Shown in pieces: positions 6,933 to 33,209 of a DNA stretch of 64,000 nucleotides. Source of the stretch: Candidatus Eremiobacteria bacterium (GTDB taxonomy: Bacteria > Vulcanimicrobiota > Vulcanimicrobiia > Vulcanimicrobiales > Vulcanimicrobiaceae); NCBI GenBank assembly GCA_963737065.1, contig CAVTRC010000001.1, positions 320,001 to 384,000 of the forward strand, in the 5' to 3' direction. Every line of letters starts with the position of its first letter. Positions within the stretch are counted from its first letter, which is position 1. A model generated the notes under the pieces. That model ran no database searches, was not told the origin of the DNA, and worked only from the letters and a program-made list of their open reading frames with translations. Both the position numbers and the translations under genes were made by a program.

Positions 6933-7981
6933 GCGGCACCACGCCCTTCACTGCGGTCCGCGCCGCGCATCACGCTTCGCGCAATGATGTTGATCAGCAG
7001 CGTAATGAGAAAGAGCACCACGGCAAGTTCCGCAAGCGACCGTTGCGCCATACCCGTGGCGTCCGTTAGCGCCGATTCCAACTGCGAGACGATCACGGCA
7101 GCGATCGTGTTGATCGGCGAAAAGACGTTTTGCGGAAACGTATTGACGGCCGCACCGCACACCATGAGGACCGCCATCGTCTCACCGATCGCGCGTCCGA
7201 ACGCAAGCAACACCGATGCAAGGACTCCCGCGCGAACGCTCGGCAACACCGCGCGCGTCATTGCCTGCCAACTGCTGCTGCCGAGCGCCATACTCGCTTC
7301 GAAGATCGCATTCGACTGCGCGAGGATCACGTCGCGCGTCGTAGCGACCATGATCGGAATAACCATGAGCGAGAGAATGAACACCGACGCCGCGAGCCCG
7401 TTGCCGCTTCCCGCTGAGCCTCCGACGAAGGGAACGAACCCCAGATGCGACGTGGCCCAGGGCCCGAACGCGCGCGCAATCCACGGCACGAGCACGACGA
7501 GTCCCCACAGTCCGTACACGACCGACGGGATTCCCGCCATCAATTCAACGAGCGCATTCGTCAATGGCCGCACTGGGCGAGGCACGCGATAGACGAGCGA
7601 AAGCGCAACCATAATGGAAAGCGGCACGGCGATCACCATCGTGCACACCGCGCTCAGCACCGAACCAAAGATGAAGACAAGCGCACCAAACGATGCGTTC
7701 GGCGCGCCGGCGAATCCATGACGCGTGGTGACGCCGTTCGCGTACTGATTGCCGATGTTCCAAATCGGACTTGTAAGAAATTGCAGTCCGTTGAACCGTA
7801 TCGCCGGATACGCGTACACGAGCAGAAAGAACAGCATCAAAAAGATAATCGCGAAACTGATGACCGCTGCAACCGCCGTCAGAATGCGAAGTACGAGCTG
7901 CGCGCCGATTCGCTGGAGCGCGGCCGGCGATACGGCTTTCGCGGTATCCCCCCCACTGATGGCCATCTTTGCTGTCGCCAT
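6929..7981 (-). CDS. pstC: Phosphate ABC transporter permease PstC
   Basis: ELMAGIPSVVYGLWG, EASMALG and GRAIGETMAVLMV motifs. Confidence 0.95.
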   Translation of the reverse strand: MATAKMAISGGDTAKAVSPAALQRIGAQLVLRILTAVAAVISFAIIFLMLFFLLVYAYPAIRFNGLQFLTSPIWNIGNQYANGVTTRHGFAGAPNASFGALVFIFGSVLSAVCTMVIAVPLSIMVALSLVYRVPRPVRPLTNALVELMAGIPSVVYGLWGLVVLVPWIARAFGPWATSHLGFVPFVGGSAGSGNGLAASVFILSLMVIPIMVATTRDVILAQSNAIFEASMALGSSSWQAMTRAVLPSVRAGVLASVLLAFGRAIGETMAVLMVCGAAVNTFPQNVFSPINTIAAVIVSQLESALTDATGMAQRSLAELAVVLFLITLLINIIARSVMRGADRSEGRGAA

Positions 7982-7990
7982 GCTATGTGC

Positions 7991-9040
7991 TTATTGGATC
8001 TTGTCGATCTGCGCCCGGCTCAGTTTCACGATCGACGCCGGAAGCGGCAAGAAGTGAACCGCGCCGAGATACTTTGAGTTCTGTCCGGACGTCAGCGTCC
8101 AATTGAGGAATTTTTTGAGCGCCGCGGACGTCGCGCTGTCGGGCTGCTTCGGATTGACGATCGCATACTCGTAATTGATGATCGGGTACGATTGCGCGCC
8201 GGCAGCGAACACAAGCGAGATGCGTTCGTCTTCGGGCGTCGACTTGGCCGTTGCCGCAACGGCCGCTGCGATCGTCGAACGCGTCGGAAGAACGAACGTT
8301 CCGTCTCGGTTTTGCAACGCCGCGTACCCGAGGCCGGCCTTTTGCGTTTCGTTCAGGAAGCTTACGCCGACGTACGCAACGGAGTACCTCGTGTTTTGAC
8401 ACGTCTGCACCATACCCGGGTTTCCCGTCGCACCGACGGCGTTGCCGACTGCGGGCCAGCTAATCGTCGTGCCGTAGCTCGGTCCGTTCGCCCATGACGG
8501 CGTCGATTTTGCCAAGTACTGCGTGAACGTAAACGTATCGCCCGAGCCGTCTGCACGATGGATCGGAACAATTTGTTGATGTGAAAGCTTTGACGCAAGC
8601 GCCTTGTTGATCTGTTTGATCTTCGAGTCGTCCCAGTATTTGATGTCGCCGGAGTAGATGCCGGCGAGAACGGGACCCGATAGATTCAAGTGTTGGTTCG
8701 CGTTGATTCCCGGAATATTGTAGTTGACTTGTTGCGCGGAAATCGCGAGCGGGATGTTGAGCATCGGGCTGTTCTTCATCTGCCCGTTCGGTAAATACGC
8801 GTCGGAAGCGCCGATTTGCGCAACGCCGGCGATCGTTTGCGAGATCCCCGTACCGCTCCCCGTTCCTTGCGTCGTGATTTGAACGTCGCGGTGTTCCTTT
8901 TGATAATCCGCGACCCACAGATTCATCAATGGATAGAGTAACGTCGAACCGGTCTCGAGCAGGTTCGTCGCAGCGAGAACGCGTCCGGCTGCGGACGCGA
9001 GCAGCAGCGCGGCGACTGCCAAGGCAAGGATCGTACGCAT
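7991..9040 (-). CDS. pstS: Phosphate-binding protein PstS
   Basis: Signal peptide and GSTLLYP, GTGSGTG, GASDA, HRADGSGDT and YPI motifs. Confidence 0.95.
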   Translation of the reverse strand: MRTILALAVAALLLASAAGRVLAATNLLETGSTLLYPLMNLWVADYQKEHRDVQITTQGTGSGTGISQTIAGVAQIGASDAYLPNGQMKNSPMLNIPLAISAQQVNYNIPGINANQHLNLSGPVLAGIYSGDIKYWDDSKIKQINKALASKLSHQQIVPIHRADGSGDTFTFTQYLAKSTPSWANGPSYGTTISWPAVGNAVGATGNPGMVQTCQNTRYSVAYVGVSFLNETQKAGLGYAALQNRDGTFVLPTRSTIAAAVAATAKSTPEDERISLVFAAGAQSYPIINYEYAIVNPKQPDSATSAALKKFLNWTLTSGQNSKYLGAVHFLPLPASIVKLSRAQIDKIQ

Positions 9041-19804: not shown

Positions 19805-20338
19805 ATGACGAAGAACGCCGAGCAACTCATGACGCGAGTGCGTGCACGCGATACGGATGCGTTCGAAGCGCTGTACGACGCGCATCATCGGCTCGTGTAC
19901 GGACTAGCTGCTCGCATGCTAGGCGACGTTTCCGGCGCTGAAGACGTAACACAAGCGGTGTTTTTGAAGGTATGGCTGGCGCCAGACCGATTTCACGGCG
20001 GGAATTTTCCGGCATGGATCGCGCGCATAACGCGCAATCGCGCGCTCGACGTGTTGCGCACACGAAGCACTCGCGAGTGTGAGCTTCCGTTCGCTATGTC
20101 CGAAGACGTCCCACTGGAAGAAACGGCGTTTGCGAATCTTGATGCCGACATCGTGCGCCGTGCGGTTGCAGCGCTGCCGCAAGAGCAGCGTGAGCCGATC
20201 GAACTCGGCTTCTTCAGCGGCATAACGTACGAAGAAATTTCGCGGCGAAGCGGCGTTCCGCTCGGAACCGTTAAAACGCGTATCCGCATGGGATTGAGAA
20301 AGCTGCGCTCCTTACTCGAAGGAGCGGTAACGGTATGA
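19805..20338 (+). CDS. ECF sigma factor, SigK-like
   Basis: AFEALYD, AEDVTQAVFLKVW, WIARITRNRALD and region 4 TYEEIS..GVPLGTVKTRIR motifs. Confidence 0.93.
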   Translation: MTKNAEQLMTRVRARDTDAFEALYDAHHRLVYGLAARMLGDVSGAEDVTQAVFLKVWLAPDRFHGGNFPAWIARITRNRALDVLRTRSTRECELPFAMSEDVPLEETAFANLDADIVRRAVAALPQEQREPIELGFFSGITYEEISRRSGVPLGTVKTRIRMGLRKLRSLLEGAVTV

Positions 20339-21066
20339 ACGGCGCACACGCGGACATGCTCGATGAAGTCGCCGTGTACGTGCTCGGAACGCTGCCCGAG
20401 GATGAGAGCGAACGCGTGCGCCGGCACATCGAATCATGCAGCGATTGCCGGGCGGAATACGAGGCGCTTCTCCCCGTCGTCGGTGCACTGGCCCGGGTTG
20501 CTGAAGCGCCCGCCGGCGCCGCGATCGGCTCAACTGATGCGTCGTCCTTACTGAAGGCGCGCATCATGCGTGAGGTTCGTCCGAGTAAGCGTAACACCGC
20601 GTTGCCGGCGTATCTCGTGGCCGCGGCCTGCGCGGTGATCGCACTCGGCTTCGGCTGGGAGACTTTGACGCTCGGAAAACAGCTTCACAACGTACAAGAG
20701 TCGTATTCCTCGATTGCGCGAGCGCATACGAACGACGAGAGCGCATTGGCTGACTTAGTGAGCGCACGGGCGAAGCGGTATATCGTTCCGGGCGGTGAAA
20801 TCGTGAAGTCAAACAATCGCATATACATTGCGATGAGCCATATGCCGAAGCCACCGGCTGGGAAAGTCTATCAAGCGTGGACCCAGCCGCACGGGTCGAA
20901 GACGATGGTTCCCGGACTGACGTTTGTGCCGAACGATCGCGGTGTAGCAATCGTACGAGTCTCGTCCGATGCAAGCGCGTTGCACGCGGTCGCGGTCAGC
21001 ATCGAGCCACCGGGCGGAAGTAAAGCTCCCACAACGTCCCCGGTGGTCGTCGAAGTCCTCGACTGA
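20335..21066 (+). CDS. RskA-family anti-sigma factor with an N-terminal ZAS zinc site
   Basis: H…HIESCSDC (HxxxCxxC), one TM segment, and C-terminal PAGKVYQAW / AVSIEPPGGSKAPT motifs. Confidence 0.92.
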   Translation: MNGAHADMLDEVAVYVLGTLPEDESERVRRHIESCSDCRAEYEALLPVVGALARVAEAPAGAAIGSTDASSLLKARIMREVRPSKRNTALPAYLVAAACAVIALGFGWETLTLGKQLHNVQESYSSIARAHTNDESALADLVSARAKRYIVPGGEIVKSNNRIYIAMSHMPKPPAGKVYQAWTQPHGSKTMVPGLTFVPNDRGVAIVRVSSDASALHAVAVSIEPPGGSKAPTTSPVVVEVLD

Positions 21067-21103
21067 TGATTTGAACGAACCGTCCGGTTCGGTCTACATG
21101 AAC

Positions 21104-22427
21104 CTATAAATGTTGGTCGAGCGACGCCAACTCTGTACGAGCCTGCTGTGCGTACGTTGGATCGAATTGCGGGTTCTCCGCGAGTGCCGAACTGGAGAAG
21201 CGACCGCGCTCTTATCGTCTGCCCGTCGTGCAGCGCGATCATTGCTGCATGATACCGTATGCGGGGATCTTGCGTGTTATATCTGGTCGCGAGGCGTATA
21301 GCGTTCCGCGCCATCGTCCATTGTCCGGCCGCAGCCGCACACCAGGCGAGCGTATCTTGCGCATAGATTTCGTCACCGCGATGCGCCACCTCGCGTTGCG
21401 CGATGTGTAAGCCGTCCGCAACCCGTACACCGTGTTCGCAATAGTAGACCGCAAGAAGACGATCGTTGATGTGATAGGCATTTCCAAGCCGCTCGACCGC
21501 GTAGATCAAGTCGCGCGTTCGTTGAGCGGCCGCCGCGTCGCCGAGTGCGTTTTGCGCGTCGCTCTCGTATCCTAGGATCTCCGGCTCCGGAACGATATTC
21601 GCGCCGGTTTGCGCAGATTTGAGCGCGCATTCCCAGTCGCGGCTTGCCCAACAAAAGCGCGCGAGGGCACGGTATGCCATTTCAAAATTACCGAACTGCG
21701 ATATCGCAACACGCTCCTCGCGCTCGGCGGAAGCAACGTCGCCCGCCGAAAATGCGAGTTCACCCGCGCGAAAATGATACCAGGCACGTGCTTGTGCCGA
21801 ATTGTCGGCTACAGCGTCGGATTGCGCGGTAGCGCGCGCTAGCGCTGTGCGCGCGCGTTCGAGATTGCCCGTGAGCTCGTCATATCGAGCTTGAACCGCT
21901 AGGACGGTTGGCGTCACATGGATTGCGGACGCGATTCGAAGATCGCGCGCTGCGGCCCGGTAATCGCCAAGCTCCATCTGCAGCGACGCCATCTGCGAGG
22001 GCGCATTTGAGTCATTGGGTTGATCCGCGTGCGCGGCTGTCTCGTACGCCAACGCCGTCGGAAAAAGGTGCAGCGCCGTATATGCCGATGCTGCGATTTC
22101 GTCCGCTGCAGCATTGTTTTGCGGTTGTAGCTTAAGGGACCGCTTCGCGTCGCGTATCGCGCGCAGAATGTCGGCTACATCCTGTTCTTCGCGGTAACGT
22201 TGCATGTACTGCGCCGCCAGAAGTTTCGCGCTGATTTGATCCTGCGGATATGCCCGCACACGCTGCTCGTAAAATGCGATCGTCGCGTTTCGAAACGTGT
22301 AATCGGGCAGCACCGGCGCAACGTACGCCTGAGCCGACGCCGGCCGGTGCGACGCGAATACCGGCCATGCGGCGACTGCTATAATTGCAGCCGCCGCTAT
22401 GATCGTCGTCGAGATGCGAAGCTTCAG
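21104..22427 (-). CDS. TPR protein, paralog of 24082-25386; CTG start and a one-base frameshift near the 3' end
   Basis: Colinear with the paralog. Removing one base at about 21190 restores …LLQSALAENPQFDPTYAQQARTELASLDQHL*. GGAG-N7-CTG overlaps the upstream TGA. Confidence 0.8.
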
Positions 22428-23143
22428 TGAGGTGCTCCTAAGTAGGGGAACGCCGTCGTGAAATGCTTCGGTGCGGTTTGCCACGATACGTGATCCGACG
22501 TGAGGTCGGGGCGGTGCCCCGACGGGTACGTCGCGTCAGCTCGTCCATCGGACTCTTTCATATCGTCGGGGGCGAGTCCAAGGCTCGGAATCGTTTTTCC
22601 GAAAATCGTTCCAAGCGAGAGATCAACCACGTCGTCCGTGAGCGCGCGACCGCCGAATGGCTTTAACGCCGCCGGCGCTTGCGTGGCGCCTTTCGTTTCA
22701 ATGCCAAGGTAGTTGTTGCACGTGCCCGGAGCAGTGCCGATACACGATTGGCTTGTTCCGGAGAGATCGACGATTTGCACGTCCGGCGTCAGCACGCTTC
22801 GCTCGACGGTCGCGATCGCGGTGCTACGGCCGGCAACGTTCGTCATGAACGCCATGATTTGAGGACCAAGGACGGCCGCATCTTGATTAGGAGTATCGAT
22901 ATTGTTCCCTTGATGCTCGGCGAACGTCGCGAACACTTCGTTAACGGCCGGCCGATTCAAACGGTCGAGTTGCTTGTACGGGCCGGCGCCCAATGATGTT
23001 AGTTCCGGATTGCCGCCCGGGGGATTCGATGGTGCAACGGGTGCTCCACCGTTTGGCGATGTGGTGCTGCCTCCACCCGAACAGGATATGAGCAGAAGCG
23101 ATGCGGCAAGAGAGACGGTAGCTGAAAATAGTATACGTCGCAT
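22424..23143 (-). CDS. Lipoprotein equivalent to the C-terminal half of DUF4331
   Basis: Lipobox LISC and QLDRLNRPAVNE, GGRALTDDVVDLSL and FPYLGAPH motifs. Confidence 0.85.
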   Translation of the reverse strand: MRRILFSATVSLAASLLLISCSGGGSTTSPNGGAPVAPSNPPGGNPELTSLGAGPYKQLDRLNRPAVNEVFATFAEHQGNNIDTPNQDAAVLGPQIMAFMTNVAGRSTAIATVERSVLTPDVQIVDLSGTSQSCIGTAPGTCNNYLGIETKGATQAPAALKPFGGRALTDDVVDLSLGTIFGKTIPSLGLAPDDMKESDGRADATYPSGHRPDLTSDHVSWQTAPKHFTTAFPYLGAPH

Positions 23144-23150
23144 CGTTCAC

Positions 23151-23909
23151 CTAGCTCCCACTCGACGTGTATGTCGTGACCCAGTATGCGATCTTCGGTC
23201 CGTTGCAGCCGGCGATCAAATCGGCACGCGGCATCTCAATGACGATCGAGAGCACGTTGTAACCCGTGAAAAAGTCTTGTCCCGGATCGTTGAATCCCTG
23301 AGGACACGTTCCGTTTCCGAGTTTCGGAAGGCAGCTTGGCGCCATGCTTCCTCTGTTGCGATCGGGAAGTATTTTAAGGAACTGCGCCAGATCGAAGAAG
23401 AACGGCTCTTCGCGGGCGCCCGCGAAAACCTGCATATCGCCGACCTTGAAGGGCTGGCCGATCGTTCCTTGCCCGGTCATCGGCACGAGCGATGCTTGAT
23501 TTCCAAGCGATACGGGGTGCGCGGGCCCGTTGACGTAGATCGGTTGATTTGCACCCGGTTGACCCGCTACGACCTGGATCACGAACGATTGGTAAATGCT
23601 TTGCGATGGCGTCATCGTGTTCTCGTCTTCGCCATCGAAGTTCATTTGGTAGATTACGCCGGGATCGAAGAACGTGGAGGAGCCCTGGCCGCTCGGGATG
23701 AGCGGATGGACGTTCATCACCATGACGACGTTCTTGGCGTTGTCCGGCGCCGGGAAAATGTATGGATCGGTAATGTCGGCGCCCGGTCTACCGATAGTGA
23801 CGGGGGAGTCTTGATGATCGGAAGCTCTCGCGGCAAACGTCATATACAGTCCGAAAGCAAGCACGAGAGTTGCGAGCATCGCGACGCCGCCGAGCAGTCG
23901 CGATTTCAT
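23151..23909 (-). CDS. Secreted protein equivalent to the N-terminal half of DUF4331
   Basis: Signal peptide ARA|SDHQDSP, and ADITDPYIF, FAGAREEPFFFDL and GYNVLSIVIEMP motifs. Confidence 0.85.
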   Translation of the reverse strand: MKSRLLGGVAMLATLVLAFGLYMTFAARASDHQDSPVTIGRPGADITDPYIFPAPDNAKNVVMVMNVHPLIPSGQGSSTFFDPGVIYQMNFDGEDENTMTPSQSIYQSFVIQVVAGQPGANQPIYVNGPAHPVSLGNQASLVPMTGQGTIGQPFKVGDMQVFAGAREEPFFFDLAQFLKILPDRNRGSMAPSCLPKLGNGTCPQGFNDPGQDFFTGYNVLSIVIEMPRADLIAGCNGPKIAYWVTTYTSSGS

Positions 23910-23955
23910 AGATTGGTAATCGCTCCGTTGAAGGAAATTCCGAGTAATGGGGACA

Positions 23956-23982
23956 CAACGGCCGGGATCGATAGGCGGATGT
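23956..23982 (-). promoter_or_regulatory. ECF-type promoter ACATCC-N16-CGTTG
   Basis: Upstream of the split DUF4331 operon, with the same spacing as three other copies. Confidence 0.55.
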
Positions 23983-24047
23983 AACGACGCGCGATTTAGG
24001 GTCGGAAGCCCTAAGCAAACCCGGTAAAGGGCCTATACCAAAAAAGG

Positions 24048-24074
24048 CAATCCATACCGCGCGTCTGCACGTTG
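24048..24074 (+). promoter_or_regulatory. ECF-type promoter CAATCC-N16-CGTTG
   Basis: Ends 7 nt before GTG 24082, consistent with a leaderless mRNA. Confidence 0.65.
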
Positions 24075-24081
24075 ATACCTC

Positions 24082-25386
24082 GTGCGCGCGTTTCGTGTAA
24101 TCGCCGTTATTGCGGCGGTGGCAATCATACTCTGGCCATTTTTCGGGAACCGGCATGGAGACGCGGCTGCATTCCAAGCCCCGATAACACGCGACTATCT
24201 CGTGCGCGATCGTGTCATCTCGTTTTACGAGCGGCGCATGCGTGAAGATCCGGCTGATGGTTTGAGTGCGCGTTTGCTTGCGAGCCAGTATCTGCAGCGC
24301 TACCGCGAAACACTCGACGTTGGGGATGTCACGCGTGGCATCGGCGAAGCCGCATATTCGCTTCGCCGGCAACCCGCGCACAACGCAGCCGCAGACGAAC
24401 TCGCTGCATCGGGATACTACGCGCTCCACGATTTCACGCGCGCATTGTATTTTGAAAATCTAGCGCACGGTACCGATTCGGCCGATGCAAACGCTCCCTC
24501 GCAGATGGCCCTGCTCGCGATGGAGTTGGGGCACTACGCGCAGGCACAATCGTTCATCCGGGAGGCGGCGCGCGCGGGCGCAGGGCCGGCGGAATGGTCG
24601 GCGGAGGCGCGCTATGACGAATTGACGGGATCGATCGACTCCGCCAAAGCCCTAATGGAGCGCGCCGCGCAACGAAGCGATGCGGTGATCGACACGCCGG
24701 CGTCCTCTCGAGCTTGGTACCACGTTCGTCTTGGCGAGATGGCTTTCGCGACCGGCGACGTTAACCGTGCAGAAGCCGAGGAGCATATCGCGCTCGTCGA
24801 CTTTCCTCGATACGAACTCGCATATCGAGCGCTAGCGCGATTCTGTTGGGCGGACCGTGACTGGCGTTGCGCGCTCGATACGGCGCGAACCGGCGCGCAG
24901 ATTCTTCCCGAACCCGAAATTCTCGGTTACGAGAGTGATGCGCAACGTGCGCTCGGCGACGTTCAAGGCGCGCGTCGAACACGAGACCTTATCTTCGCCG
25001 TTGAACGCATCGGCAACGCCTACCACATCAACGATCGCCTTCTGGCGACATATTATTCGGAACATGGTGTCCGGCTCGAAGACGCGTTTGCGATCGCACA
25101 GCGAGAAGTAACGCTCCGCGGAACCGAGATCTTCGCACAAGACACTTTTGCTTGGGCCGCGGCAATGGCCGGTCGTTGGGCGATCGCCGACCGCGCAAGC
25201 GCGAACGCCATGCGGTTTAACACCCAAGACTCACGGATTCTTTTCCACGCGGGCGCTATCGCGTATCACTTCGGTCGAACGGCGCGCGCTCGCGCGCTGC
25301 TGCGGCGCGCCCTCGCGCTAAACGCGCATTTCGATCCTTTCTACACCGTGCAAGCGCAAAGCATGCTTGCTACACTCTCGCAGTAA
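24082..25386 (+). CDS. Membrane-anchored or secreted TPR protein
   Basis: N-terminal hydrophobic segment, TPR helices, and AWYHVRLGE and AQDTFAWA motifs. Confidence 0.88.
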   Translation: MRAFRVIAVIAAVAIILWPFFGNRHGDAAAFQAPITRDYLVRDRVISFYERRMREDPADGLSARLLASQYLQRYRETLDVGDVTRGIGEAAYSLRRQPAHNAAADELAASGYYALHDFTRALYFENLAHGTDSADANAPSQMALLAMELGHYAQAQSFIREAARAGAGPAEWSAEARYDELTGSIDSAKALMERAAQRSDAVIDTPASSRAWYHVRLGEMAFATGDVNRAEAEEHIALVDFPRYELAYRALARFCWADRDWRCALDTARTGAQILPEPEILGYESDAQRALGDVQGARRTRDLIFAVERIGNAYHINDRLLATYYSEHGVRLEDAFAIAQREVTLRGTEIFAQDTFAWAAAMAGRWAIADRASANAMRFNTQDSRILFHAGAIAYHFGRTARARALLRRALALNAHFDPFYTVQAQSMLATLSQ

Positions 25387-25407
25387 CATCGGAGCAACCA
25401 CACAACA

Positions 25408-26688
25408 ATGAGATCGTCGTCTCGCCTCGCTTTCCCGATCTTTGCCGTGTTCCTCGCCGTTGTCGCACTCACGCTGTATCTACCGCGGACGGCGCGCACT
25501 TCCGACCATCAAGACTCGCCGCTGATGGTGGGGCGTCCCGGCGCGGACATCACCGACGTGTTCGTCTTTCCCGCAGCGAACCCCAATGATGTCGTCCTCG
25601 CAATGAACGTTCATCCCTTGATCGCCGCTGGAACGTACAGTACGGTATCGTTCGATCCTGGGGTTATGTATCAGTTCAAAATCGCGACGAACGGCGGCTA
25701 TCGTGAAAATAAAGTCATCCAGTTCCGTGCAATCGGATCGGGCCCGTCGCAACGCATTGAGATGTATGGGCCCGCGGCACCGGCAACACCGGGAACGGTC
25801 TCGCAGTGGGCCGGCTCACCGCAAACGTTCACCGTTAATCGCAAGGCGCAACTCTCCGGCGGGATCATCGCGATGGCCGGTCCAAGGCAAGACCCTTTCT
25901 ATTTCGATCTGGCCCAGTTCCTCAAGATCGTTCCTGACCGCAGCTATAAGTACCACCCGCCGGCGGGGAACGGCGTGCCGGCGCCCTCGGCGCGGTGTTT
26001 CCGCAAGCCGGGTGTCGATACGCTGCGCGGTTACGATGTTCTATCGTTCGTCGTAGAACTGCCGCGCCGGATGCTCGCCAACTCCAACGGAAAACTCGGC
26101 GTTATTCGTGTCTACGCGACCACGTCAACCGAACAGAACGGCCGATGGATTCAGGTGGAGCGGCTCGGGCGTCCTGCGGTGAAGGAAGCGTTTCAAATGT
26201 ATGAGCGTCACGACGCGACGAATCGGAGTGCTCCGTGGAACGATCCGCTGCTGCCGCACGATATCATTTCGTTTATGACGTCGCCGCGCGCCGCGCACCG
26301 TTCGATGCAACTCGCGAAAGCCGTAGAAGCCGTACTGATTCCTGATGAAATGGAAGCAGATCTCTCCGCCGACGGACCCGCGCGTTATCTTGCTGTCGAG
26401 ACGAAAGGCAAGAGCGGACTGCCTACCGGCATCGTGCGAGTTGTCCCGGACTTTCCGCTCGGCGGCGTGAAGAAAGCGTTGAAGAACCCCTACCGTGATT
26501 TCGGCGGCCGCGATCCATCGAGCCCGGTCATCGATCTTTCACTCGGCATCATTTTCGGAACGCTCGGTGAAAAGGTCGGACTAGCGCCGCCCGACGGGCA
26601 ACAGACCGATTGTCTCACGAGCGACAACGTTCAACCACCGGATCGAGGCGTAACAAAAACGTTCCCATATCTCGGCGTGCCACTCTAA
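25408..26688 (+). CDS. Full-length secreted DUF4331-family protein
   Basis: ART|SDHQDSP, ADITDVFVF, AGPRQDPFYFDL, QVERLGRPAVKE and FPYLG motifs. Confidence 0.88.
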   Translation: MRSSSRLAFPIFAVFLAVVALTLYLPRTARTSDHQDSPLMVGRPGADITDVFVFPAANPNDVVLAMNVHPLIAAGTYSTVSFDPGVMYQFKIATNGGYRENKVIQFRAIGSGPSQRIEMYGPAAPATPGTVSQWAGSPQTFTVNRKAQLSGGIIAMAGPRQDPFYFDLAQFLKIVPDRSYKYHPPAGNGVPAPSARCFRKPGVDTLRGYDVLSFVVELPRRMLANSNGKLGVIRVYATTSTEQNGRWIQVERLGRPAVKEAFQMYERHDATNRSAPWNDPLLPHDIISFMTSPRAAHRSMQLAKAVEAVLIPDEMEADLSADGPARYLAVETKGKSGLPTGIVRVVPDFPLGGVKKALKNPYRDFGGRDPSSPVIDLSLGIIFGTLGEKVGLAPPDGQQTDCLTSDNVQPPDRGVTKTFPYLGVPL

Positions 26689-26711: not shown

Positions 26712-27206
26712 TCACGAGTGGGGCAGCGCGTCGAGTTCGTCGACGTTGACGTATCCGCGGTGTCGCGGTGGCGGCGGTGAAGTGACGACGATTCCCGCCG
26801 TCTGAATTTTGCCCGGAAGCGTGCCGCTGTCGTATACAAGCACGTGCGTTTGTTTCCGTGGCGCATAGAAATCGACGCTTTGCGGACGCCGGCCGGGGAT
26901 GACGACGCTTCCGGTGCCGCCGTTCTTCCCTCGGATACCAAAGATCCGCAAACGGCTTCCCGAAAAAACGATGGTAATGGAATCGCCGCCGTCGAAAGAG
27001 CGCGCGCTCTCGCCATGAAACCGTCCGTCGTCGCGATGGATGATCTGCCAACGGCCCGAGTACCGAACGTCCAAGATAGATTTTTCGTGTTCCGCGGCTA
27101 CCGACTGTACAACGGCCGACGCCGCGGCGGCCTGCGCCGCCCGTGGATCGGCCGCGTGACAGTCGACCAGCAGCGTTACGGCAACCGTCGCGGCCAAAAC
27201 CTTCAT
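26712..27206 (-). CDS. Secreted protein or lipoprotein with a galactose-binding-like beta-sandwich
   Basis: Signal peptide with Cys (LLVDC), then YSGRW…ITIVFSGSRLRIFG…G…V…VDFYA…VYDSG. Confidence 0.65.
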   Translation of the reverse strand: MKVLAATVAVTLLVDCHAADPRAAQAAAASAVVQSVAAEHEKSILDVRYSGRWQIIHRDDGRFHGESARSFDGGDSITIVFSGSRLRIFGIRGKNGGTGSVVIPGRRPQSVDFYAPRKQTHVLVYDSGTLPGKIQTAGIVVTSPPPPRHRGYVNVDELDALPHS

Positions 27207-27757
27207 TGAGTCGGATACGCTCGGTGCAAATCCATTATCGCTGCGGAAAGGATCACGTGAAATTCGGCATTGTTTCGAGGGCCGACGGCGGTATCGGCAT
27301 CCGCCTCGTGCATCAACGTAATGTGCATAGGCCGCGAAAGCATGTGTTCGAGCATATACCCGACGTCATATCGGCCATCCGGCATGACACCCGCATTGTA
27401 CAGTGAACGTGCCAGCGTAGGCGCCGGCGGAACGGATGCGTCGGGAAGGGAGATATGCTGACGTTCTACTTGGATAACGGCAAGGTGCACGAATGCGTCA
27501 AACGTTTTGAAAAACTGAGCGACGTTTGCCGCGCCGAATCGATGTTGAAGCGACGCGCTTTCCTTCGCCATATCCGGTCCCGCCAGATACGCAACGAGCT
27601 TCTCCGACGAAAACGATTTGGCGCCGCCACCGGCGGCGATCATTTGCGCGGTCAACGTCAGATCGGGCTTACCATAGTATCGCCCGTGCGATGCATTCAT
27701 CGCCGCTGACGAAGCACCATGAGTCAACGCCGCTGCCATCAAAAGCCCGAAAACCAT
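27203..27757 (-). CDS. Secreted all-alpha hypothetical protein with clustered His/Met residues
   Basis: Signal-like N-terminus and GKPDLTLTAQMIAAGGG, MLEHMLSRPMHITLMHEAD and EFHVIL segments. Confidence 0.7.
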   Translation of the reverse strand: MVFGLLMAAALTHGASSAAMNASHGRYYGKPDLTLTAQMIAAGGGAKSFSSEKLVAYLAGPDMAKESASLQHRFGAANVAQFFKTFDAFVHLAVIQVERQHISLPDASVPPAPTLARSLYNAGVMPDGRYDVGYMLEHMLSRPMHITLMHEADADTAVGPRNNAEFHVILSAAIMDLHRAYPTQ

Positions 27758-27842
27758 TATCACCGCCTCTCGTAGTCGCCGGTTGCTATTTTGCGTTTTC
27801 CCTCCAACCGGTGAATCGTTCCTTCCCTCGATGGATGGAGCA

Positions 27843-27869
27843 CAATCCGTCGCGCCGGCATCAACGTTG
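27843..27869 (+). promoter_or_regulatory. ECF-type promoter CAATCC-N16-CGTTG
   Basis: Ends 7 nt before ATG 27877, consistent with a leaderless mRNA. Confidence 0.65.
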
Positions 27870-27876
27870 ATTGCGT

Positions 27877-28071
27877 ATGGATCACGACGAGCGACACCAC
27901 TCGCATGTGCATGCGCATCTTGACGGCACGGTTCATTTTCACCGGCACGAACATGGCGGTTTCGATCACGAACACGAGCACGAGCACGAGCACGGAAACA
28001 ATCGGCAGGCGTTCGTCGGCGTGTCGAAAGCAAACAAAGAACGCGCGGACCCCGGCGCTCGGACATCGTAA
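27877..28071 (+). CDS. His-rich mini-protein (Hpn-like metal storage or chaperone)
   Basis: MDHDERHHSHVHAHLDGTVHFHRHEHGGFDHEHEHEHEHG…, with the promoter motif directly upstream. Confidence 0.65.
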   Translation: MDHDERHHSHVHAHLDGTVHFHRHEHGGFDHEHEHEHEHGNNRQAFVGVSKANKERADPGARTS

Positions 28072-28417: not shown

Positions 28418-30703
28418 TTATGGGGTGAAGGAATATTGCACCCGAACCGTACGAGCTTCCGACGGATGGAAATGATAGTCGTTTATACCGGCGCCGCCGA
28501 GTGCGGGATTCACGCCGGCGTTGTGGACGTTCGCGAGGCTGGCGTCTTGCGGCAACCAGGAGGCGTAATAGTACGTAACGTCGTCCGGGTGCGCGTTTAA
28601 GACATTAAAGAGTCCGATCGTCAACCGCCGGCGTCCAGAGAGTTTCGCCGTGTATTCCGCGTTCAGCAGCGTAGACGGGCTGGAGTACGCGTCGCCTTGC
28701 GTATCCAGTGGACGGGGGCCAAAATAGCGCATGCGAACACTGGCCGCATAGTGCGGCTTGTCGACCGTAACGCCGAGCGACGCGACCGCGCTCAGTGATT
28801 CGGGAACAAACGTTCCTCGACCGTCCGGATTCGTGAGGAACCGCGCAGCCGAATCGGCAATGTCCGCGTCGATCACAAGCCATTTCGTCGGGCGATAGTT
28901 GTTGGCAAATTCGATGCCTTTGCGCCGGCTCGGACCGCCCAGAGACGTCGTACCGTGATCGCCATCGAAGATCAGTTCATTCGCCTGAAACAGCTGCCAC
29001 AACGACACCGTGCTGACCAGTTTATCGTTTGTGAAGCGATAGCCGACCTCATCTCCAACCGACCGATTCAGCAGACCGTTCTGAGCGACAGCCGTGCCCG
29101 TATAGTCGAACCGTTCGTGCGTCTGCGGATCGTCGATGTATGTCACGCCGCGCACGTCGTTTGAGTGAAAGCTTTCTCCGAAGTCGAGATACAACTCGTT
29201 TCTTGAGTTGATTGTATAAGCAACGTTCATCTTTGGACTAATGAGACCGGCTGATCCACGACCGCTATTTTTCGGGTCGTACGCGGCATCGCTGTAACCG
29301 TACACGTCGGCTCGGATCCCCGGATCGATTCTCCATTTACTGGAGAGCCGGAGTTTCGACTGGATATAGATATAGGCGGGCCGCTCAACCACGTGATCGT
29401 CACTAAGGGTTCCATCACGAAATCGCTCGCGATCCCTTACAAGAAACAAGCCGACGGTCGGGATGTTGAAGTTTGTGAATCCTGCTCCGAAGGTCGTCGT
29501 GCTACCGGGAGTATCGACGGTCCGGGTAACGTTTAACCCCTCGAAGAAGCGATTGTCGAGCTGTTCCCGCTGGTCGCCGCACTGAAAGTTGTAGGAGACG
29601 GGCGTAAGCGATCCGGGCGCCGCACCCGCCGGCGCCGTATACGCGGGGCAGTACGAAGCGTAGTTCGGTGCTCGTAGTCTGCTTGTCCCATTCGCGACGC
29701 ATGTGGTATATGCGGTGTTACACGTGATGGGGTTGGCGGTTTCGTTGAAGTAATTCGTCGCATCGTAGAAATCGTAGGTGAAGTTCGAGAAAAGGTCGAG
29801 CCGGTACGCGACTGCATAGGCGTCGACCGCAAACGATCCATTGTGTACGTTGCGCGTCCATTGCGTCGAAAGCGTGAAGTAGCTCGTCGTGCCACCGTCG
29901 CTCGCATCGATGTAGCCGAATCGGCTAAGTTCGTCATCGTCGACGAGGCGCTGCGGAATTTGGTCGCTCGAGTCAAACGTGCCGCTATAGGCGCTCGCAG
30001 TGGCCGTGAAGCTGCCACTCGGACGCACCACGCTGTAGCGAAAGACGCCGTCGTATTTATTGTATTCGTCGGGCTTAACGAATGAGCCGTTATCGTGATA
30101 GACCTCGATCGCGTACAGCAGATTGCCCGCACCGCTCGGATGCGACGCCGCGGTGAAAAACCGGTCATATCCGAAGTCGCCGATTCCAACCGACGTCGTG
30201 GCCGCGATCGTGTCGCGATAGTAGACGTTGTAAGAACCAGCCGTAGAGAAGTCGCCTTGATCGGCGTAATACGTTCCTTTTTTGTATTCGACATTGTTTA
30301 CCAGCTCGGGCATCAGCCAATTGATATCCGAGTAGCCCTGGCCGTGAGCGTGCGTCGGCAGGTTGACGGGAATCCCGTTCACCGTGGAGTCGAGATCCGT
30401 TCCGTGATCGAGCTGAAAGCCGCGTAGATAGTATTGATTCGCCTTGCCTTCGCCGCTGTGTTGGCTGACGACGAGTCCCGGGATTTGCTCTAGTATTTCG
30501 CCCGGACGCAAGATCGGACGCGTCGCGATGTCTTGTTGACTGATGAAACCTTCCGAGGCCGCCGTCGCCGTGCCGATCAGGTTCGTGCTGCGGCCGGTCG
30601 TTTTGACGTTGCCGATCAGCTTGAGCGGAGGCGGAGATGGCGAGGGCGTGGGCGACGGTGTGACGATCGCGAGCGTTGCGCTGAAAAGCACGACAAGCAG
30701 CAT
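28418..30703 (-). CDS. TonB-dependent receptor of the type often found in Ni/Co loci
   Basis: Plug motifs RPGEILEQIPG, QHSGEGKANQYYLRGFQLDHGTD and HAHGQGYSD. Beta-barrel ending in FNVLN…HFHPSEARTVRVQYSF. Confidence 0.9.
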   Translation of the reverse strand: MLLVVLFSATLAIVTPSPTPSPSPPPLKLIGNVKTTGRSTNLIGTATAASEGFISQQDIATRPILRPGEILEQIPGLVVSQHSGEGKANQYYLRGFQLDHGTDLDSTVNGIPVNLPTHAHGQGYSDINWLMPELVNNVEYKKGTYYADQGDFSTAGSYNVYYRDTIAATTSVGIGDFGYDRFFTAASHPSGAGNLLYAIEVYHDNGSFVKPDEYNKYDGVFRYSVVRPSGSFTATASAYSGTFDSSDQIPQRLVDDDELSRFGYIDASDGGTTSYFTLSTQWTRNVHNGSFAVDAYAVAYRLDLFSNFTYDFYDATNYFNETANPITCNTAYTTCVANGTSRLRAPNYASYCPAYTAPAGAAPGSLTPVSYNFQCGDQREQLDNRFFEGLNVTRTVDTPGSTTTFGAGFTNFNIPTVGLFLVRDRERFRDGTLSDDHVVERPAYIYIQSKLRLSSKWRIDPGIRADVYGYSDAAYDPKNSGRGSAGLISPKMNVAYTINSRNELYLDFGESFHSNDVRGVTYIDDPQTHERFDYTGTAVAQNGLLNRSVGDEVGYRFTNDKLVSTVSLWQLFQANELIFDGDHGTTSLGGPSRRKGIEFANNYRPTKWLVIDADIADSAARFLTNPDGRGTFVPESLSAVASLGVTVDKPHYAASVRMRYFGPRPLDTQGDAYSSPSTLLNAEYTAKLSGRRRLTIGLFNVLNAHPDDVTYYYASWLPQDASLANVHNAGVNPALGGAGINDYHFHPSEARTVRVQYSFTP

Positions 30704-30831
30704 GGTTGTGCCGACAACGTTCTTCCGCGCGCATTCAGATTGAATTTGCCGTTATTGTCTACGAAATTGCACTGGCAAGCGCCCTGTCGTTGATTTTCGT
30801 CAGCTCGTTACGACGAATTTCGCTGACGTGG

Positions 30832-30858
30832 CAATCCAACCGGCGTCTTTGCTCGTTG
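30832..30858 (+). promoter_or_regulatory. ECF-type promoter CAATCC-N16-CGTTG
   Basis: 33 nt upstream of the GTG of the Ni/Co transporter operon. Confidence 0.65.
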
Positions 30859-30891
30859 ATAGCGCATATCGTGACCGGTCGGGGAGGCAGA

Positions 30892-32415
30892 GTGCGTTCG
30901 GGTCTTTGGAGCGGAGTAGTTGCCTGTCTCGTTTTGCTTTTCGCCGCCGGTCAACCGGTCGAGGCGCATCCGCTTGGGAATTTCACGATCAATCGCCTGG
31001 TTGAAGTCCGCGCAACGTCCGGAATGCTGCACGTTCGATACGTGGTCGATCGGGCGGAAATCCCGACCTTTCAGCTCATGCGCGCTTCATCGACCGACGC
31101 AAGCTGGACGCCCGCCCAGCTTCGTGCATGGGCAGATGAACAGCCCGCGCTCATCACCGAAGGGTTGAATGTTCTCGTCGACGGACGGCGCGCGCCGTTG
31201 CGGCCCGCCGGCGATTTTGCGAAACTGCGACCCGGGGCGGGTGGCCTGCCGATCCTCTACTGGTCAGGCGCCTTTACTACGCCGCTCTCCGACGGTCGCC
31301 ATCACATCGTCGTAGAAGATCGCGTGTTCGACGCGAATCGCATTGGGTGGAAAGACGTCGTCATCGCGCCCCAGACTGAGCCGACGCACGAACTGCTTTC
31401 GTATCCACCGGCGCTCATTTCTTCACCGCGCGCCGTGGAATCGGCGTCGTTTGATCTGTCGGCAACCGCCGGCGTCTCGCACATTGTCGATAATGTCGAT
31501 GACAACGGCGAAGGCGCGTCATCGGGTGTCTCAATTGTCAGGTCGAATGCGCTTTCCGACATGTTCGCGAACCCCAACCGCGCGCCGCTCTTTCTGTTAT
31601 TGACGGCGCTTGTCGCGTTTGGGCTCGGCGCACTGCACGCAATTGAACCCGGTCATGGCAAGGCGCTGCTGGCGTTCACGTTGGTTGGATCGCGCGCAAC
31701 CGTTAAACAAGCAGCAATTCTCGCGGCGTCTCTTACGTTCGCTCATACGATCGGCGTGCTCGTGCTCGGCGTCGTGCTCTTCTTCGCCGCCGGGTTCGCA
31801 ACCGAGTCGATCTATTCGTGGATAACGTTGATCTCCGGTATAGCGGTCGCTGTCATCGGCGCGAGAAATCTTTCGCGATATCTTCATGCGCGCGGGATAC
31901 ACGCCCACGGCGACGGCCACGTTCACGCGCATGATGCGCACGATCATCACCATGGTGATGCCGCGCACGCGCATTCGCACGCGATTCCGGGAACGCGGCC
32001 CATCGACTTTCGCGCGGCCGTCGTCGCGGCGATGAGCGGCGGCGTCGCGCCATGTCCCGCGGCAATCGTCGTCATGCTTGCGGCGCTGCGATTGCATCAA
32101 ATCGGCTACGGCATCGTTCTCATCGTCATCTTCAGCCTCGGTCTTGCATGCGTCCTCACCGGAATCGGTATTGCGGTCGTTCATGGATCGGCGTGGATTG
32201 GACGAAGCGGGCGGTTCGATCGGATGATCGCATACGGTCCGCTCGCTTCGGCCGTGCTCATTTCGCTCGTCGGTGCGGTGATGGTCGGTCAAGGATTCGT
32301 CGCGGAGGGAATCCGAGCTCCCCTCGCGCTCCTCGTTGGAATTACCGTGCTGGCAATTGCCGGATACGCGCTCGCACCGCAACACACTCACGCGCACGCA
32401 ATAGGTGAATCATGA
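30892..32415 (+). CDS. RcnA/NicO-type Ni/Co transporter fused to an N-terminal periplasmic domain
   Basis: GGGGAGG SD, VEA|HPLGNF, HAIEPGHGK, a His-rich loop (HAHGDGHVHAHDAHDHHHGD…) and PCP motif. Confidence 0.9.
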   Translation: MRSGLWSGVVACLVLLFAAGQPVEAHPLGNFTINRLVEVRATSGMLHVRYVVDRAEIPTFQLMRASSTDASWTPAQLRAWADEQPALITEGLNVLVDGRRAPLRPAGDFAKLRPGAGGLPILYWSGAFTTPLSDGRHHIVVEDRVFDANRIGWKDVVIAPQTEPTHELLSYPPALISSPRAVESASFDLSATAGVSHIVDNVDDNGEGASSGVSIVRSNALSDMFANPNRAPLFLLLTALVAFGLGALHAIEPGHGKALLAFTLVGSRATVKQAAILAASLTFAHTIGVLVLGVVLFFAAGFATESIYSWITLISGIAVAVIGARNLSRYLHARGIHAHGDGHVHAHDAHDHHHGDAAHAHSHAIPGTRPIDFRAAVVAAMSGGVAPCPAAIVVMLAALRLHQIGYGIVLIVIFSLGLACVLTGIGIAVVHGSAWIGRSGRFDRMIAYGPLASAVLISLVGAVMVGQGFVAEGIRAPLALLVGITVLAIAGYALAPQHTHAHAIGES

Positions 32416-33209
32416 TCGGTACCACGGCATTTACCGTCTTCACGTTGGGCCTGCGACACGGCGCCGACCCCGACCATCTTGCCGCGATCGATAACATGAC
32501 GAGAAACTCGATCGTACGCGCGCCGCGTCTTTCGCGTTTCATCGGTGCGCTTTTCGCGGGCGGCCATACGATTATGGTTCTCGCGATCGCAATGCTCGTC
32601 GGCTTCTTAGGAACGCGTTTCGCCGCACATGGCGCAGCGATCGAAACAGCCGGAACGTGGATCTCAATCATCGTGCTTCTCGCCATCGCGGGCCTTAATC
32701 TGCGGCAACTTCAACTCGGGCAGAACGATCGGGTTGCCGGACTGAAATCGCGACTGCTTCCGGCGAGTCTGCGTAATGCGACGTCGCCTCTCGTCGCGAT
32801 TCCGGTCGGCTTGCTCTTCGGGTTCGGCTTTGAGACTTCGAGCCAAATCGCAACGTACGCGCTTGCGTTCGGTATTGACGCCGGCATGGCGGGCGCGCTG
32901 GCCGTCGGTTCGACATTCTGTGCCGGCATGATCTGCACCGATACGCTCGATTCGCTCTTTGTCCACCGAATCGTCTCCTACCGCGCCGGTCAGTTACCTC
33001 GCGTAATGCGCGTGTGGATATGGTCGGTTACGATCTTTGCAATCGTCGTTGCGGCGTACGAGCTCGCGCAACTGCTCGGGTGGAAGCCGCCCTTCCCCGA
33101 CATTTCGGTGAGTGCGGTCCTCGTCACAGCGCTCGCGGCAGTCTTCGCATGGATCTTTTTCGCGACGCGCGCGGTCCGGCGCGTCGATCCGGTCCTGCAA
33201 CAGTATTAA
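32412..33209 (+). CDS. HoxN/HupN/NixA-family (NiCoT) high-affinity Ni/Co permease
   Basis: LGLRHGADPDHLAAIDNMTR, FAGGH and GLLFGFGFETSSQ motifs. ATGA coupling. Confidence 0.92.
   Translation: MIGTTAFTVFTLGLRHGADPDHLAAIDNMTRNSIVRAPRLSRFIGALFAGGHTIMVLAIAMLVGFLGTRFAAHGAAIETAGTWISIIVLLAIAGLNLRQLQLGQNDRVAGLKSRLLPASLRNATSPLVAIPVGLLFGFGFETSSQIATYALAFGIDAGMAGALAVGSTFCAGMICTDTLDSLFVHRIVSYRAGQLPRVMRVWIWSVTIFAIVVAAYELAQLLGWKPPFPDISVSAVLVTALAAVFAWIFFATRAVRRVDPVLQQY

Follow-up and report, generated by a model that had tools for sequence, protein, structure and literature searches.

A candidate amino-terminal metal site on exported DUF4331 proteins encoded beside NicO-type permeases in a Vulcanimicrobiaceae genome

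The DUF4331 Genes of the Locus

The DUF4331 family (PF14224) is represented by two copies in a 64,000-nucleotide stretch of the genome of a Candidatus Eremiobacteria bacterium (Vulcanimicrobiaceae; assembly GCA_963737065.1, contig CAVTRC010000001.1, positions 320,001 to 384,000 of the forward strand), which is called the window below. We analyzed the amino termini of these proteins, for which a preliminary description of the window had proposed an amino-terminal Cu(II)/Ni(II)-binding (ATCUN) motif, exposed by signal peptidase and placed next to nickel transport genes. Judged from the open reading frames (ORFs) and their Pfam matches, the window carries one full-length DUF4331 gene (25408-26688, + strand, 426 amino acids, aa) and one split copy, which consists of a soluble N-half (23151-23909, - strand, 252 aa) and a lipid-anchored C-half. 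All three products belong to the family, with 134.2, 90.8 and 50.6 bits, respectively, against a gathering cut-off of 27. The preliminary description had called both proteins N-terminal domains, which is correct for the 252-aa N-half, whereas the 426-aa protein is full length. The full-length copy and the split copy constitute the entire DUF4331 gene content of the 3.08-Mb genome, which the names carried by close homologues assign to Eremiobacterota, and each is adjoined by its own paralogous TPR-like gene, the pair being 58% identical. The full-length gene, the N-half gene and TPR_b are the three genes inside the span 23151..26688. The features of the DUF4331 cluster are:

25408..25500, + strand: signal peptide of the full-length DUF4331 protein, 31 aa, ending A-R-T (ORF and translation; -3/-1 rule obeyed in 108/113 close homologues)
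25501..25509, + strand: Ser-Asp-His codons, predicted mature residues 1-3 of the full-length protein (motif position; PF14224 model position 1 at 25501)
25501..26688, + strand: mature full-length DUF4331 protein, beta-sandwich N-domain and helical C-domain (Pfam, 134.2 bits; AlphaFold2 model)
23823..23909, - strand: signal peptide of the DUF4331 N-half, 29 aa, ending A-R-A (ORF and translation, motif position)
23814..23822, - strand: Ser-Asp-His codons, predicted mature residues 1-3 of the N-half protein (PF14224 model position 1 at 23822)
23151..23822, - strand: mature DUF4331 N-half of the split form (Pfam, 90.8 bits, profile positions up to 236 of 421)
22424..23143, - strand: DUF4331 C-half as a separate lipoprotein with the lipobox LLISC (Pfam, 50.6 bits, profile positions 249-421)
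24082..25386, + strand: TPR_b, 434 aa, membrane-anchored TPR-like partner directly upstream of the full-length DUF4331 gene (TPR matches weak, all below the Pfam cut-offs)
20871..22484, - strand: TPR_a, TPR-like paralogue partnering the split copy, 3' end frameshifted (58% identical to TPR_b up to residue 431)

Forms consisting of the N-half only or of a lipoprotein C-half only are common among the DUF4331 representatives at 50% identity. Past residue 431 TPR_a continues with 106 unrelated residues over the 3' end of a convergent anti-sigma gene, and its conserved C-terminus is readable in another frame just past a break near 21190. As read from these frames the break is a single frameshift, either genuine or an assembly error.

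Predicted Signal Peptide Cleavage

The motif SDHQDSP is encoded at 25501-25521 on the + strand and at 23822-23802 on the - strand. Translation of both genes confirmed that it follows a small-x-small signal peptide end (ART and ARA), as had been described: the full-length precursor starts with MRSSSRLAFPIFAVFLAVVALTLYLPRTART and the N-half precursor with MKSRLLGGVAMLATLVLAFGLYMTFAARA, each continuing directly with SDHQDSP. Both leaders are of the Sec type, with a charged n-region, a hydrophobic core of ~20 (about 19-21) residues and small residues at positions -3 and -1.

To place the cleavage site, three sets of homologues were used, namely 120 close homologues, 149 representatives at ≤50% identity, which were drawn from an exhaustive search yielding 1333 clusters at E ≤ 0.001, and 120 sequences from another subfamily collected around a distant representative. 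Registers from -6 to +4 were scored against the -3/-1 rule in 113, 105 and 113 sequences of the sets, respectively. With the cut placed immediately ahead of [S/A]-D-H, the rule is satisfied by 108/113, 98/105 and 107/113 sequences (313/331 overall), and the next-best registers reach at most 62, 40 and 73. In the first two sets aligned (n=229), position -1 is occupied by A (107), G (54), S (48) or T (17) in 226/229 sequences, with 3 others, position -3 by A (119), V (54), L (18), G (14), S (11), T (7) or I (3), and position -2 by bulky or charged residues (R in 87). Strong conservation starts at position +1 (S in 192, A in 28). The Pfam model begins at the same boundary: PF14224 model position 1 coincides with the Ser of S-D-H in both window genes and with the predicted mature residue 1 also in a Streptomycetaceae record, a Pseudomonas plasmid and a Rhizobium record. 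The signal peptidase cut before Ser-Asp-His, as assumed in the preliminary description, is thus well predicted, this register being by far the best under the -3/-1 rule.

Conservation of His3

That two paralogues share SDHQDSP proves nothing alone, and therefore the weight rests on conservation across the family. Conservation of His at mature position 3, which the preliminary description had named as a check, was found across subfamilies: His occupies +3 in 113/113, 93/105 and 113/113 sequences of the three sets. The aligned His column of the first two sets holds His in 214/230 sequences and Asp is found at +2 in 225/229, while in the aligned subfamily of the A-D-H-R-E-A-P type (A-D-H-[RK]-[ED]-A-P) His3 is present in 119/120.

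True DUF4331 starts read S-D-H throughout 79 related loci, which span Eremiobacterota, Armatimonadota, Planctomycetota, Cyanobacteria, Chloroflexota and one Rhodospirillales bin and were collected with a 32-row alignment; the DUF4331 protein of Nostoc likewise starts with S-D-H. Other subfamilies begin with S-S-H-R-E-A-P after GYA (Streptomycetaceae), S-H-H-F-E after AHA (a P. aeruginosa plasmid) or S-D-H-R-D-A-P after VWA (Aliiroseovarius). Position 2 hence varies between D, S, H and N, and His3 and an acidic residue at position 5 are mostly kept. An ATCUN motif requires a residue other than proline at position 2, whose amide can then be deprotonated, and the window proteins have Asp2.

A reading of S-D-H as a Ser-His-Asp catalytic set or as an Ntn-hydrolase start was also considered. 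The presence of Ala as residue 1 throughout subfamilies (107/113 sequences of one subfamily and 24/105 representatives) excludes it.

Leaderless Members Starting With Met-Ser-x-His

DUF4331 members without a signal peptide begin with Met-Ser-x-His. MSNHF is the called start in 97/120 close homologues of this group, whose members are closely related (identity of at least 78%); the remaining 23 comprise longer calls, a fragment or a divergent alignment. The start MSNHFTG occurs in Mycobacterium, Methylocystis and Streptomyces records, and MSHHLDSP and MSHHYS in Rhizobium records, where MSHHYS of R. leguminosarum lies at an internal ATG. The DUF4331 protein of R. bangladeshense starts with MSHHLDSPLARQDIRLDITDLYVF, which aligns residue for residue with S-D-H-Q-D-S-P. 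All these starts are annotation calls, and in R. bangladeshense another ATG precedes the start by one codon; a purine-rich Shine-Dalgarno-like motif is located 6-11 nt upstream of the leaderless start ATG in 5/5 records.

According to the specificity of methionine aminopeptidase, Met is removed when Ser is the following (P1') residue. Met-Ser-x-His would therefore be processed to NH2-Ser-x-His, the same terminus as in the exported forms. Two unrelated maturation routes, signal peptidase and Met excision, are thus both predicted to free the amine at a distance of two residues from the His, as a metal site at the amino terminus would require. We regard this agreement as the strongest argument for such a site.

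Predicted Fold and Conserved Acidic Residues

The AlphaFold2 model of the full-length DUF4331 protein has a mean predicted local distance difference test score (pLDDT) of 93.2 and a predicted template modeling score (pTM) of 0.92. The N-domain contains many invariant Asp residues, and H34 of the precursor, which is His3 of the mature protein, is the sole invariant His. The invariant or near-invariant acidic residues are D33, D36, D47, D50, D83, D162, D167 and D177 in precursor numbering; Asp16 and Asp19 of the mature protein are nearly invariant, with 234/239 and 237/239, respectively.

Structure searches with the model gave no functional lead. Foldseek against the PDB returned no match at E ≤ 0.001 (best 1.1e-03, template modeling score, TM, 0.17), and the wide VIA-align search gave a best Z of 7.4 (7uwu_A, root mean square deviation, rmsd, 5.5, 215 aligned residues) with generic Ig/CBM-like sandwiches beneath. 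A sequence search of the PDB gave 0 matches and the ESM Atlas no usable match. These fold-search nulls do not show that the fold is new.

The Neighboring Permeases and a Possible Second Metal Tip

Further along the window two NicO-family permeases are encoded, which are the only NicO genes of the source genome:

30892..30966, + strand: probable signal peptide of the RcnA/NicO-like permease, 25 residues, ending V-E-A (GTG start after GGAGG)
30967..32415, + strand: mature RcnA/NicO-like permease with His1 beta-sandwich domain, NicO/RcnA-like membrane domain and His-rich loop (Pfam NicO, NCBIfam)
32412..33209, + strand: short NiCoT/NicO-family permease, 265 aa, with a 4-base overlap with the preceding gene (Pfam NicO, 69.1 bits)

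The first permease, which was called as a 569-aa ORF (30706-32415, + strand) and combines a His-rich loop with a membrane part of the NicO/RcnA type, most likely starts at the GTG at 30892, which is preceded by GGAGG. For this protein it had been stated that cleavage after VEA exposes His1. The sequence HPLGNF is indeed encoded behind VEA at 30967-30984 (+ strand), HPLGNFT following A-x-A is found in 43 related loci, and His1 is invariant in 39 aligned permease N-domains. Mature residue 10 of the window permease (30994-30996, + strand) is Arg, in place of the His (HPLGNFTINH) of at least 90% of the 39 relatives in the alignment; a second ligand may have been lost here.

The AlphaFold2 model of the permease N-domain (pLDDT 86.3) has as its top PDB match in Foldseek 9gce (E 7.1e-05, prob 1.00), with a TM of only 0.45/0.55, an rmsd of 11.6 and 13% identity. 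Compared to PDB sequences the domain gave nothing significant (best E 0.094). The Pfam NicO model (PF03824, cut-off 27.7) matches the 265-aa protein with 69.1 bits and the 569-aa protein with 28.2 bits, which is barely above the cut-off, and the NCBIfam matches of both permeases stay below the curated cut-offs. A complex prediction of the mature DUF4331 protein with the His1 domain of the permease (score 0.00, mark 0.32, controls not run) gives no answer either way.

Gene Neighborhood in Other Genomes

The surroundings of DUF4331 were compared by tblastn for homologues of the window genes in the 79 related loci, 38 of which have full 10-kb flanks. The following homologues were found:

TPR-like partner beside DUF4331: 55/79 loci, 33/38 fully flanked
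RcnA-like permease with N-domain, within 10 kb: 44/79 loci, 26/38 fully flanked
Short NicO permease: 35/79 loci, 23/38 fully flanked
Sigma factor: 9/79 loci, 6/38 fully flanked
TonB-dependent receptor: 4/79 loci, 3/38 fully flanked

The placement of DUF4331 in a locus of the nickel transport type, as it had been described, is therefore borne out by the NicO-family permeases of the window and by the 26/38 fully flanked related loci with an RcnA-like gene. In the window, three further features flank the DUF4331 cluster:

19805..21066, + strand: ECF sigma factor and RskA/zf-HC2 anti-sigma pair (Pfam)
26712-28066, - strand: a pair of ORFs of 164 and 287 aa without a Pfam or NCBIfam match, separating the DUF4331 cluster from the TonB-dependent receptor
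28418-30703, - strand: TonB-dependent receptor, downstream of the DUF4331 cluster

As a sigma homologue occurs in just 9/79 loci, it is uncertain whether the sigma/anti-sigma pair is linked to the cluster. With homologues in 4, 0 and 2 of the 79 loci, respectively, the TonB-dependent receptor and the two unnamed ORFs were rejected as conserved parts of the cluster.

In addition, nine annotated plasmid records from PLSDB, whose gene tables are incomplete, were inspected. A Streptomycetaceae record encodes DUF4331, sortase F, TPR and a 'nickel transporter'; a Nostoc punctiforme record DUF4331, TPR and a permease starting HPLGNF; the R. leguminosarum record DUF4331 and HupE/UreJ; and the R. bangladeshense record DUF4331 and HoxN/HupN/NixA. 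On the P. aeruginosa plasmid (L090, 4968-7911) DUF4331 (mature S-H-H), a c-type cytochrome, DUF4198 and HupE/UreJ stand in a row, with an IS30-family transposase alongside. DUF4331 adjoins NicO/RcnA-like, HoxN/NixA or HupE/UreJ permeases in different phyla. Finding one DUF next to nickel-type permeases of three unrelated families is good guilt-by-association evidence that it deals with a transition metal, although it does not single out one metal.

The P. aeruginosa plasmid has a different accessory set around its nickel-type permease, DUF4198 being two genes away from DUF4331. Compared at the level of gene neighborhood, DUF4198 is likewise exported and accessory to nickel-type permeases, but it is another family, with His1 in place of His3. 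In the Streptomycetaceae plasmid record (L085) the class F sortase gene (7881-8624) lies between the DUF4331 and TPR genes, and the 549-aa DUF4331 protein encoded there may be wall-anchored.

Occurrence of DUF4331 and Hydrogenases in the Phylum

A link to NiFe hydrogenase as a consumer of nickel was assessed in a phylum sample of 151 genomes, including one unpublished genome (G116), 76 of which encode DUF4331. The family is present in 31/53 genomes with any PF00374 match vs 45/98 without. In a strict hydrogenase set defined post hoc (match reaching the C-terminus, E ≤ 1e-30) it is present in 24/27 vs 52/124 genomes, a contrast that follows family boundaries and is therefore counted neither for nor against the link. 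In the source genome ARD is the sole Ni/Co marker found among those searched for; the Ni-SOD search carries no weight, as its control stayed silent.

Discussion

On the basis of these comparisons, we propose with moderate confidence that the alpha-amine and His3 of DUF4331 form a metal site at the amino terminus of an exported beta-sandwich protein, which works with a TPR-like partner and NicO-type permeases. The parts of this proposal differ in strength. His3 is likely to be a metal ligand, and the participation of the terminal amine is somewhat probable as well, while a classical ATCUN plane with four nitrogen ligands (4N) seems doubtful. In the proposed mechanism DUF4331 would be an exported, here periplasmic, metal-handling protein that acts through its own N-terminus. 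After cleavage ahead of Ser-Asp-His by signal peptidase I, the free alpha-amine and the imidazole of His3 would together chelate a divalent transition metal, Ni(II) being the likeliest candidate and Cu(II) the next. The two backbone amides in between would join as ligands if the geometry is truly of the ATCUN type, and Asp2 and Asp/Glu5 might assist as axial or second-shell groups. DUF4331 would cooperate with the membrane-anchored TPR-like partner and with the NicO-family permeases, one of which bears its own His1 'angler' domain, and the metal could be passed to or from this His1-bearing permease.

Several results weigh against this proposal or parts of it. Regarding the tip itself, Asp2 (225/229) and Asp/Glu5 (222/231) are conserved to the same degree as His3, and a bare ATCUN site needs neither of them. 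His3 is replaced by V, I, L, G, Q or Y in 16/230 aligned sequences, and Asp2 is retained in 12/15 of the sequences lacking His3. The model is ambiguous at the critical place, with a mean pLDDT of 77 over the first ten residues. Regarding the metal, the source genome, which is 95% complete, has 0 matches for NiFe hydrogenase, urease alpha, LarA, HypA, CbiC and CobN, and the 569-aa permease scores 90.1 bits against the NCBIfam nickel/cobalt efflux transporter model, whose cut-off is 195. Ni(II)-ATCUN complexes also exchange slowly and are a poor fit to a hand-off role. Regarding the partners, the RcnA-like gene is missing from 12/38 fully flanked loci, and no metal permease stands next to DUF4331 in 4/9 plasmid records with their incomplete gene tables. 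The proposal of an ATCUN-type Ni/Cu mechanism made in the preliminary description is consequently upheld in part, in its predicted register, its His3 conservation and its NicO neighborhood. Its plain ATCUN form is less certain, since Asp2, Asp/Glu5 and a core Phe discussed below suggest a more built-in site, and so is nickel as the metal, the usual Ni/Co enzyme markers not being found in the genome.

Such a built-in, carboxylate-rich site would consist of an N-terminal strand docked on the beta-sandwich, in which His3 and invariant Asp residues (Asp2, Asp5, Asp16, Asp19 and the DPFFFD loop) bind a metal, either octahedral Ni/Co/Fe/Mn or Ca/Zn, with the amides not deprotonated and the amine maybe a ligand. 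The many invariant acidic residues of the N-domain alongside the single invariant His would fit this arrangement, and six-coordinate Ni sites of amine, His and carboxylates are known in RcnR, NmtR and HypA (PMC7055735). Moreover, the conservation of Phe164 in the DPFFFDL motif decreases from 0.99 to 0.29 in the 16 sequences lacking His3 (the codons of precursor residues 34 and 164 are 25507-25509 and 25897-25899), a coupling that is to be taken as a hint, as these sequences fall in few clades. The coupling, in space or in function, suggests that His3 packs on the fold and is not part of a free tail; together, Asp2, Asp/Glu5 and the co-varying Phe point to a more built-in site than the bare motif. 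Ser1, Gln89 and Pro84 are also kept less often in the His3-less homologues. The arrangement, which is the main rival of the proposed site, is nevertheless unlikely, since S, H and N stand in place of an acidic residue at position 2 in SSHREAP, SHH and SNH, respectively, and the chain start is held exactly two residues before His in exported and leaderless forms alike, which a site of the internal type would not need.

The same constancy of the chain start bears on two further explanations. The N-terminal segment might bind no metal and serve as a structural plug or as a docking peptide for the TPR-like partner or a small ligand, e.g., a metallophore, with His3 used for hydrogen bonding or packing. 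His-less variants that retain the rest of the segment, the TPR-like partner adjoining in 33/38 fully flanked loci and a function that is not constrained by any solved relative would agree with this. We consider it very unlikely, as leaderless and Rhizobium/Pseudomonas-type members keep x-x-His without a TPR neighbor, DUF4331 recurs beside three unrelated metal permease families, and a packing role leaves the exact chain start unexplained. Alternatively, the hydrophobic N-terminus could stay as an uncleaved anchor or be cut one residue later, so that His is not residue 3. The long h-region (~19-21 residues) and the rule-compliance of register +1, which would make His residue 2, in 45, 26 and 58 sequences of the three sets (26-58 of ~110 per set) would allow for this. 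It is extremely improbable given that register 0 is obeyed in 313/331 sequences, conservation begins exactly at the Ser1 position and the leaderless members start at the same residue. The amino-terminal site with amine and His3 as ligands hence remains our preferred explanation.

Well known proteins with an ATCUN motif are serum albumin, histatin-5 and hepcidin. The motif, defined in PMC12509749 as the amino-terminal Cu(II)/Ni(II)-binding sequence NH2-X-X-His, resembles the predicted mature DUF4331 terminus, which would have a free amine, a non-proline residue 2 and His3, the motif being kept family-wide. In DUF4331, by contrast, the motif is borne by a bacterial protein with a beta-sandwich fold, conserved Asp/Glu5 and Pro7 residues follow it, Asp2 matches the His in conservation within the window clade, and some members are His-less. 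Comparable too are the bacterial nickel proteins RcnR, NmtR, HypA and HypB, which bind Ni through the N-terminal amine together with a nearby His and often carboxylates, and for which a one-residue insertion at the HypA tip is reported to alter the Ni site (PMC7055735). In contrast to the exported DUF4331 proteins these are cytoplasmic regulators or chaperones, their His is mature residue 2, and no sequence or fold relation to DUF4331 was found.

The permease of the window has its nearest counterpart in the anglerases, where His1 beta-sandwich domains, Ang-1 and Ang-2, are fused to HupE/UreJ-2 permeases (Franco Cairo et al., 2025, PMC12537917). Like these, it combines a probable signal peptide, His1 and a predicted beta-sandwich domain, and the best PDB match of its modelled N-domain, 9gce, is the Cu-bound Ang-1 domain RbAng-1a of a HupE/UreJ-2 anglerase (PMC12537917); the idea of metal capture at a protein tip beside a permease is also shared. 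It differs in its membrane part, which is NicO/RcnA-like (PF03824, NCBIfam) and not HupE/UreJ-2, and its N-domain has no sequence match to a solved chain. DUF4331 in turn is a separate protein with His3, not His1. The terms DUF4331, ATCUN, NicO and RcnA do not occur in the main text of PMC12537917.

A small periplasmic partner is also present in the RcnA Ni/Co efflux system of E. coli, in which RcnB is needed for Ni/Co balance. DUF4331 has in common with RcnB that it is an accessory protein encoded beside an RcnA-type permease, whereas RcnB is not a DUF4331 protein and has no TPR partner. A full-text search by name found no paper on DUF4331, and a search for ATCUN, signal peptide and periplasmic found none on the family. 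While the motif is of a known kind, represented by ATCUN and by N-terminal-amine Ni sites, the DUF4331 family, its fold and the module of DUF4331, TPR and permease are undescribed in the searched literature.

A wider reading, which is speculative and rather unlikely to hold in full, would make DUF4331 a new and very widespread metallochaperone family defined by an amino-terminal x-x-His. Its exported forms, held by the TPR partner, would catch Ni(II), or Cu(II), with their tip and hand it over tip-to-tip to the His1-bearing 'angler' domain in a permease of the NicO type, and its leaderless forms would act likewise inside the cell. An extracytoplasmic metal relay of three such parts, if true, would be without a described counterpart. 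The family is large, with its 1333 representative clusters, and has no solved structure; the chain start kept two residues before His offers a concrete and cheap test of its function. If the amino-terminal metal site is confirmed, DUF4331 would be a new component of bacterial trace-metal uptake or efflux. It would also help to account for the accessory genes with which soil bacteria, cyanobacteria and actinobacteria surround their NicO, HoxN and HupE permeases.

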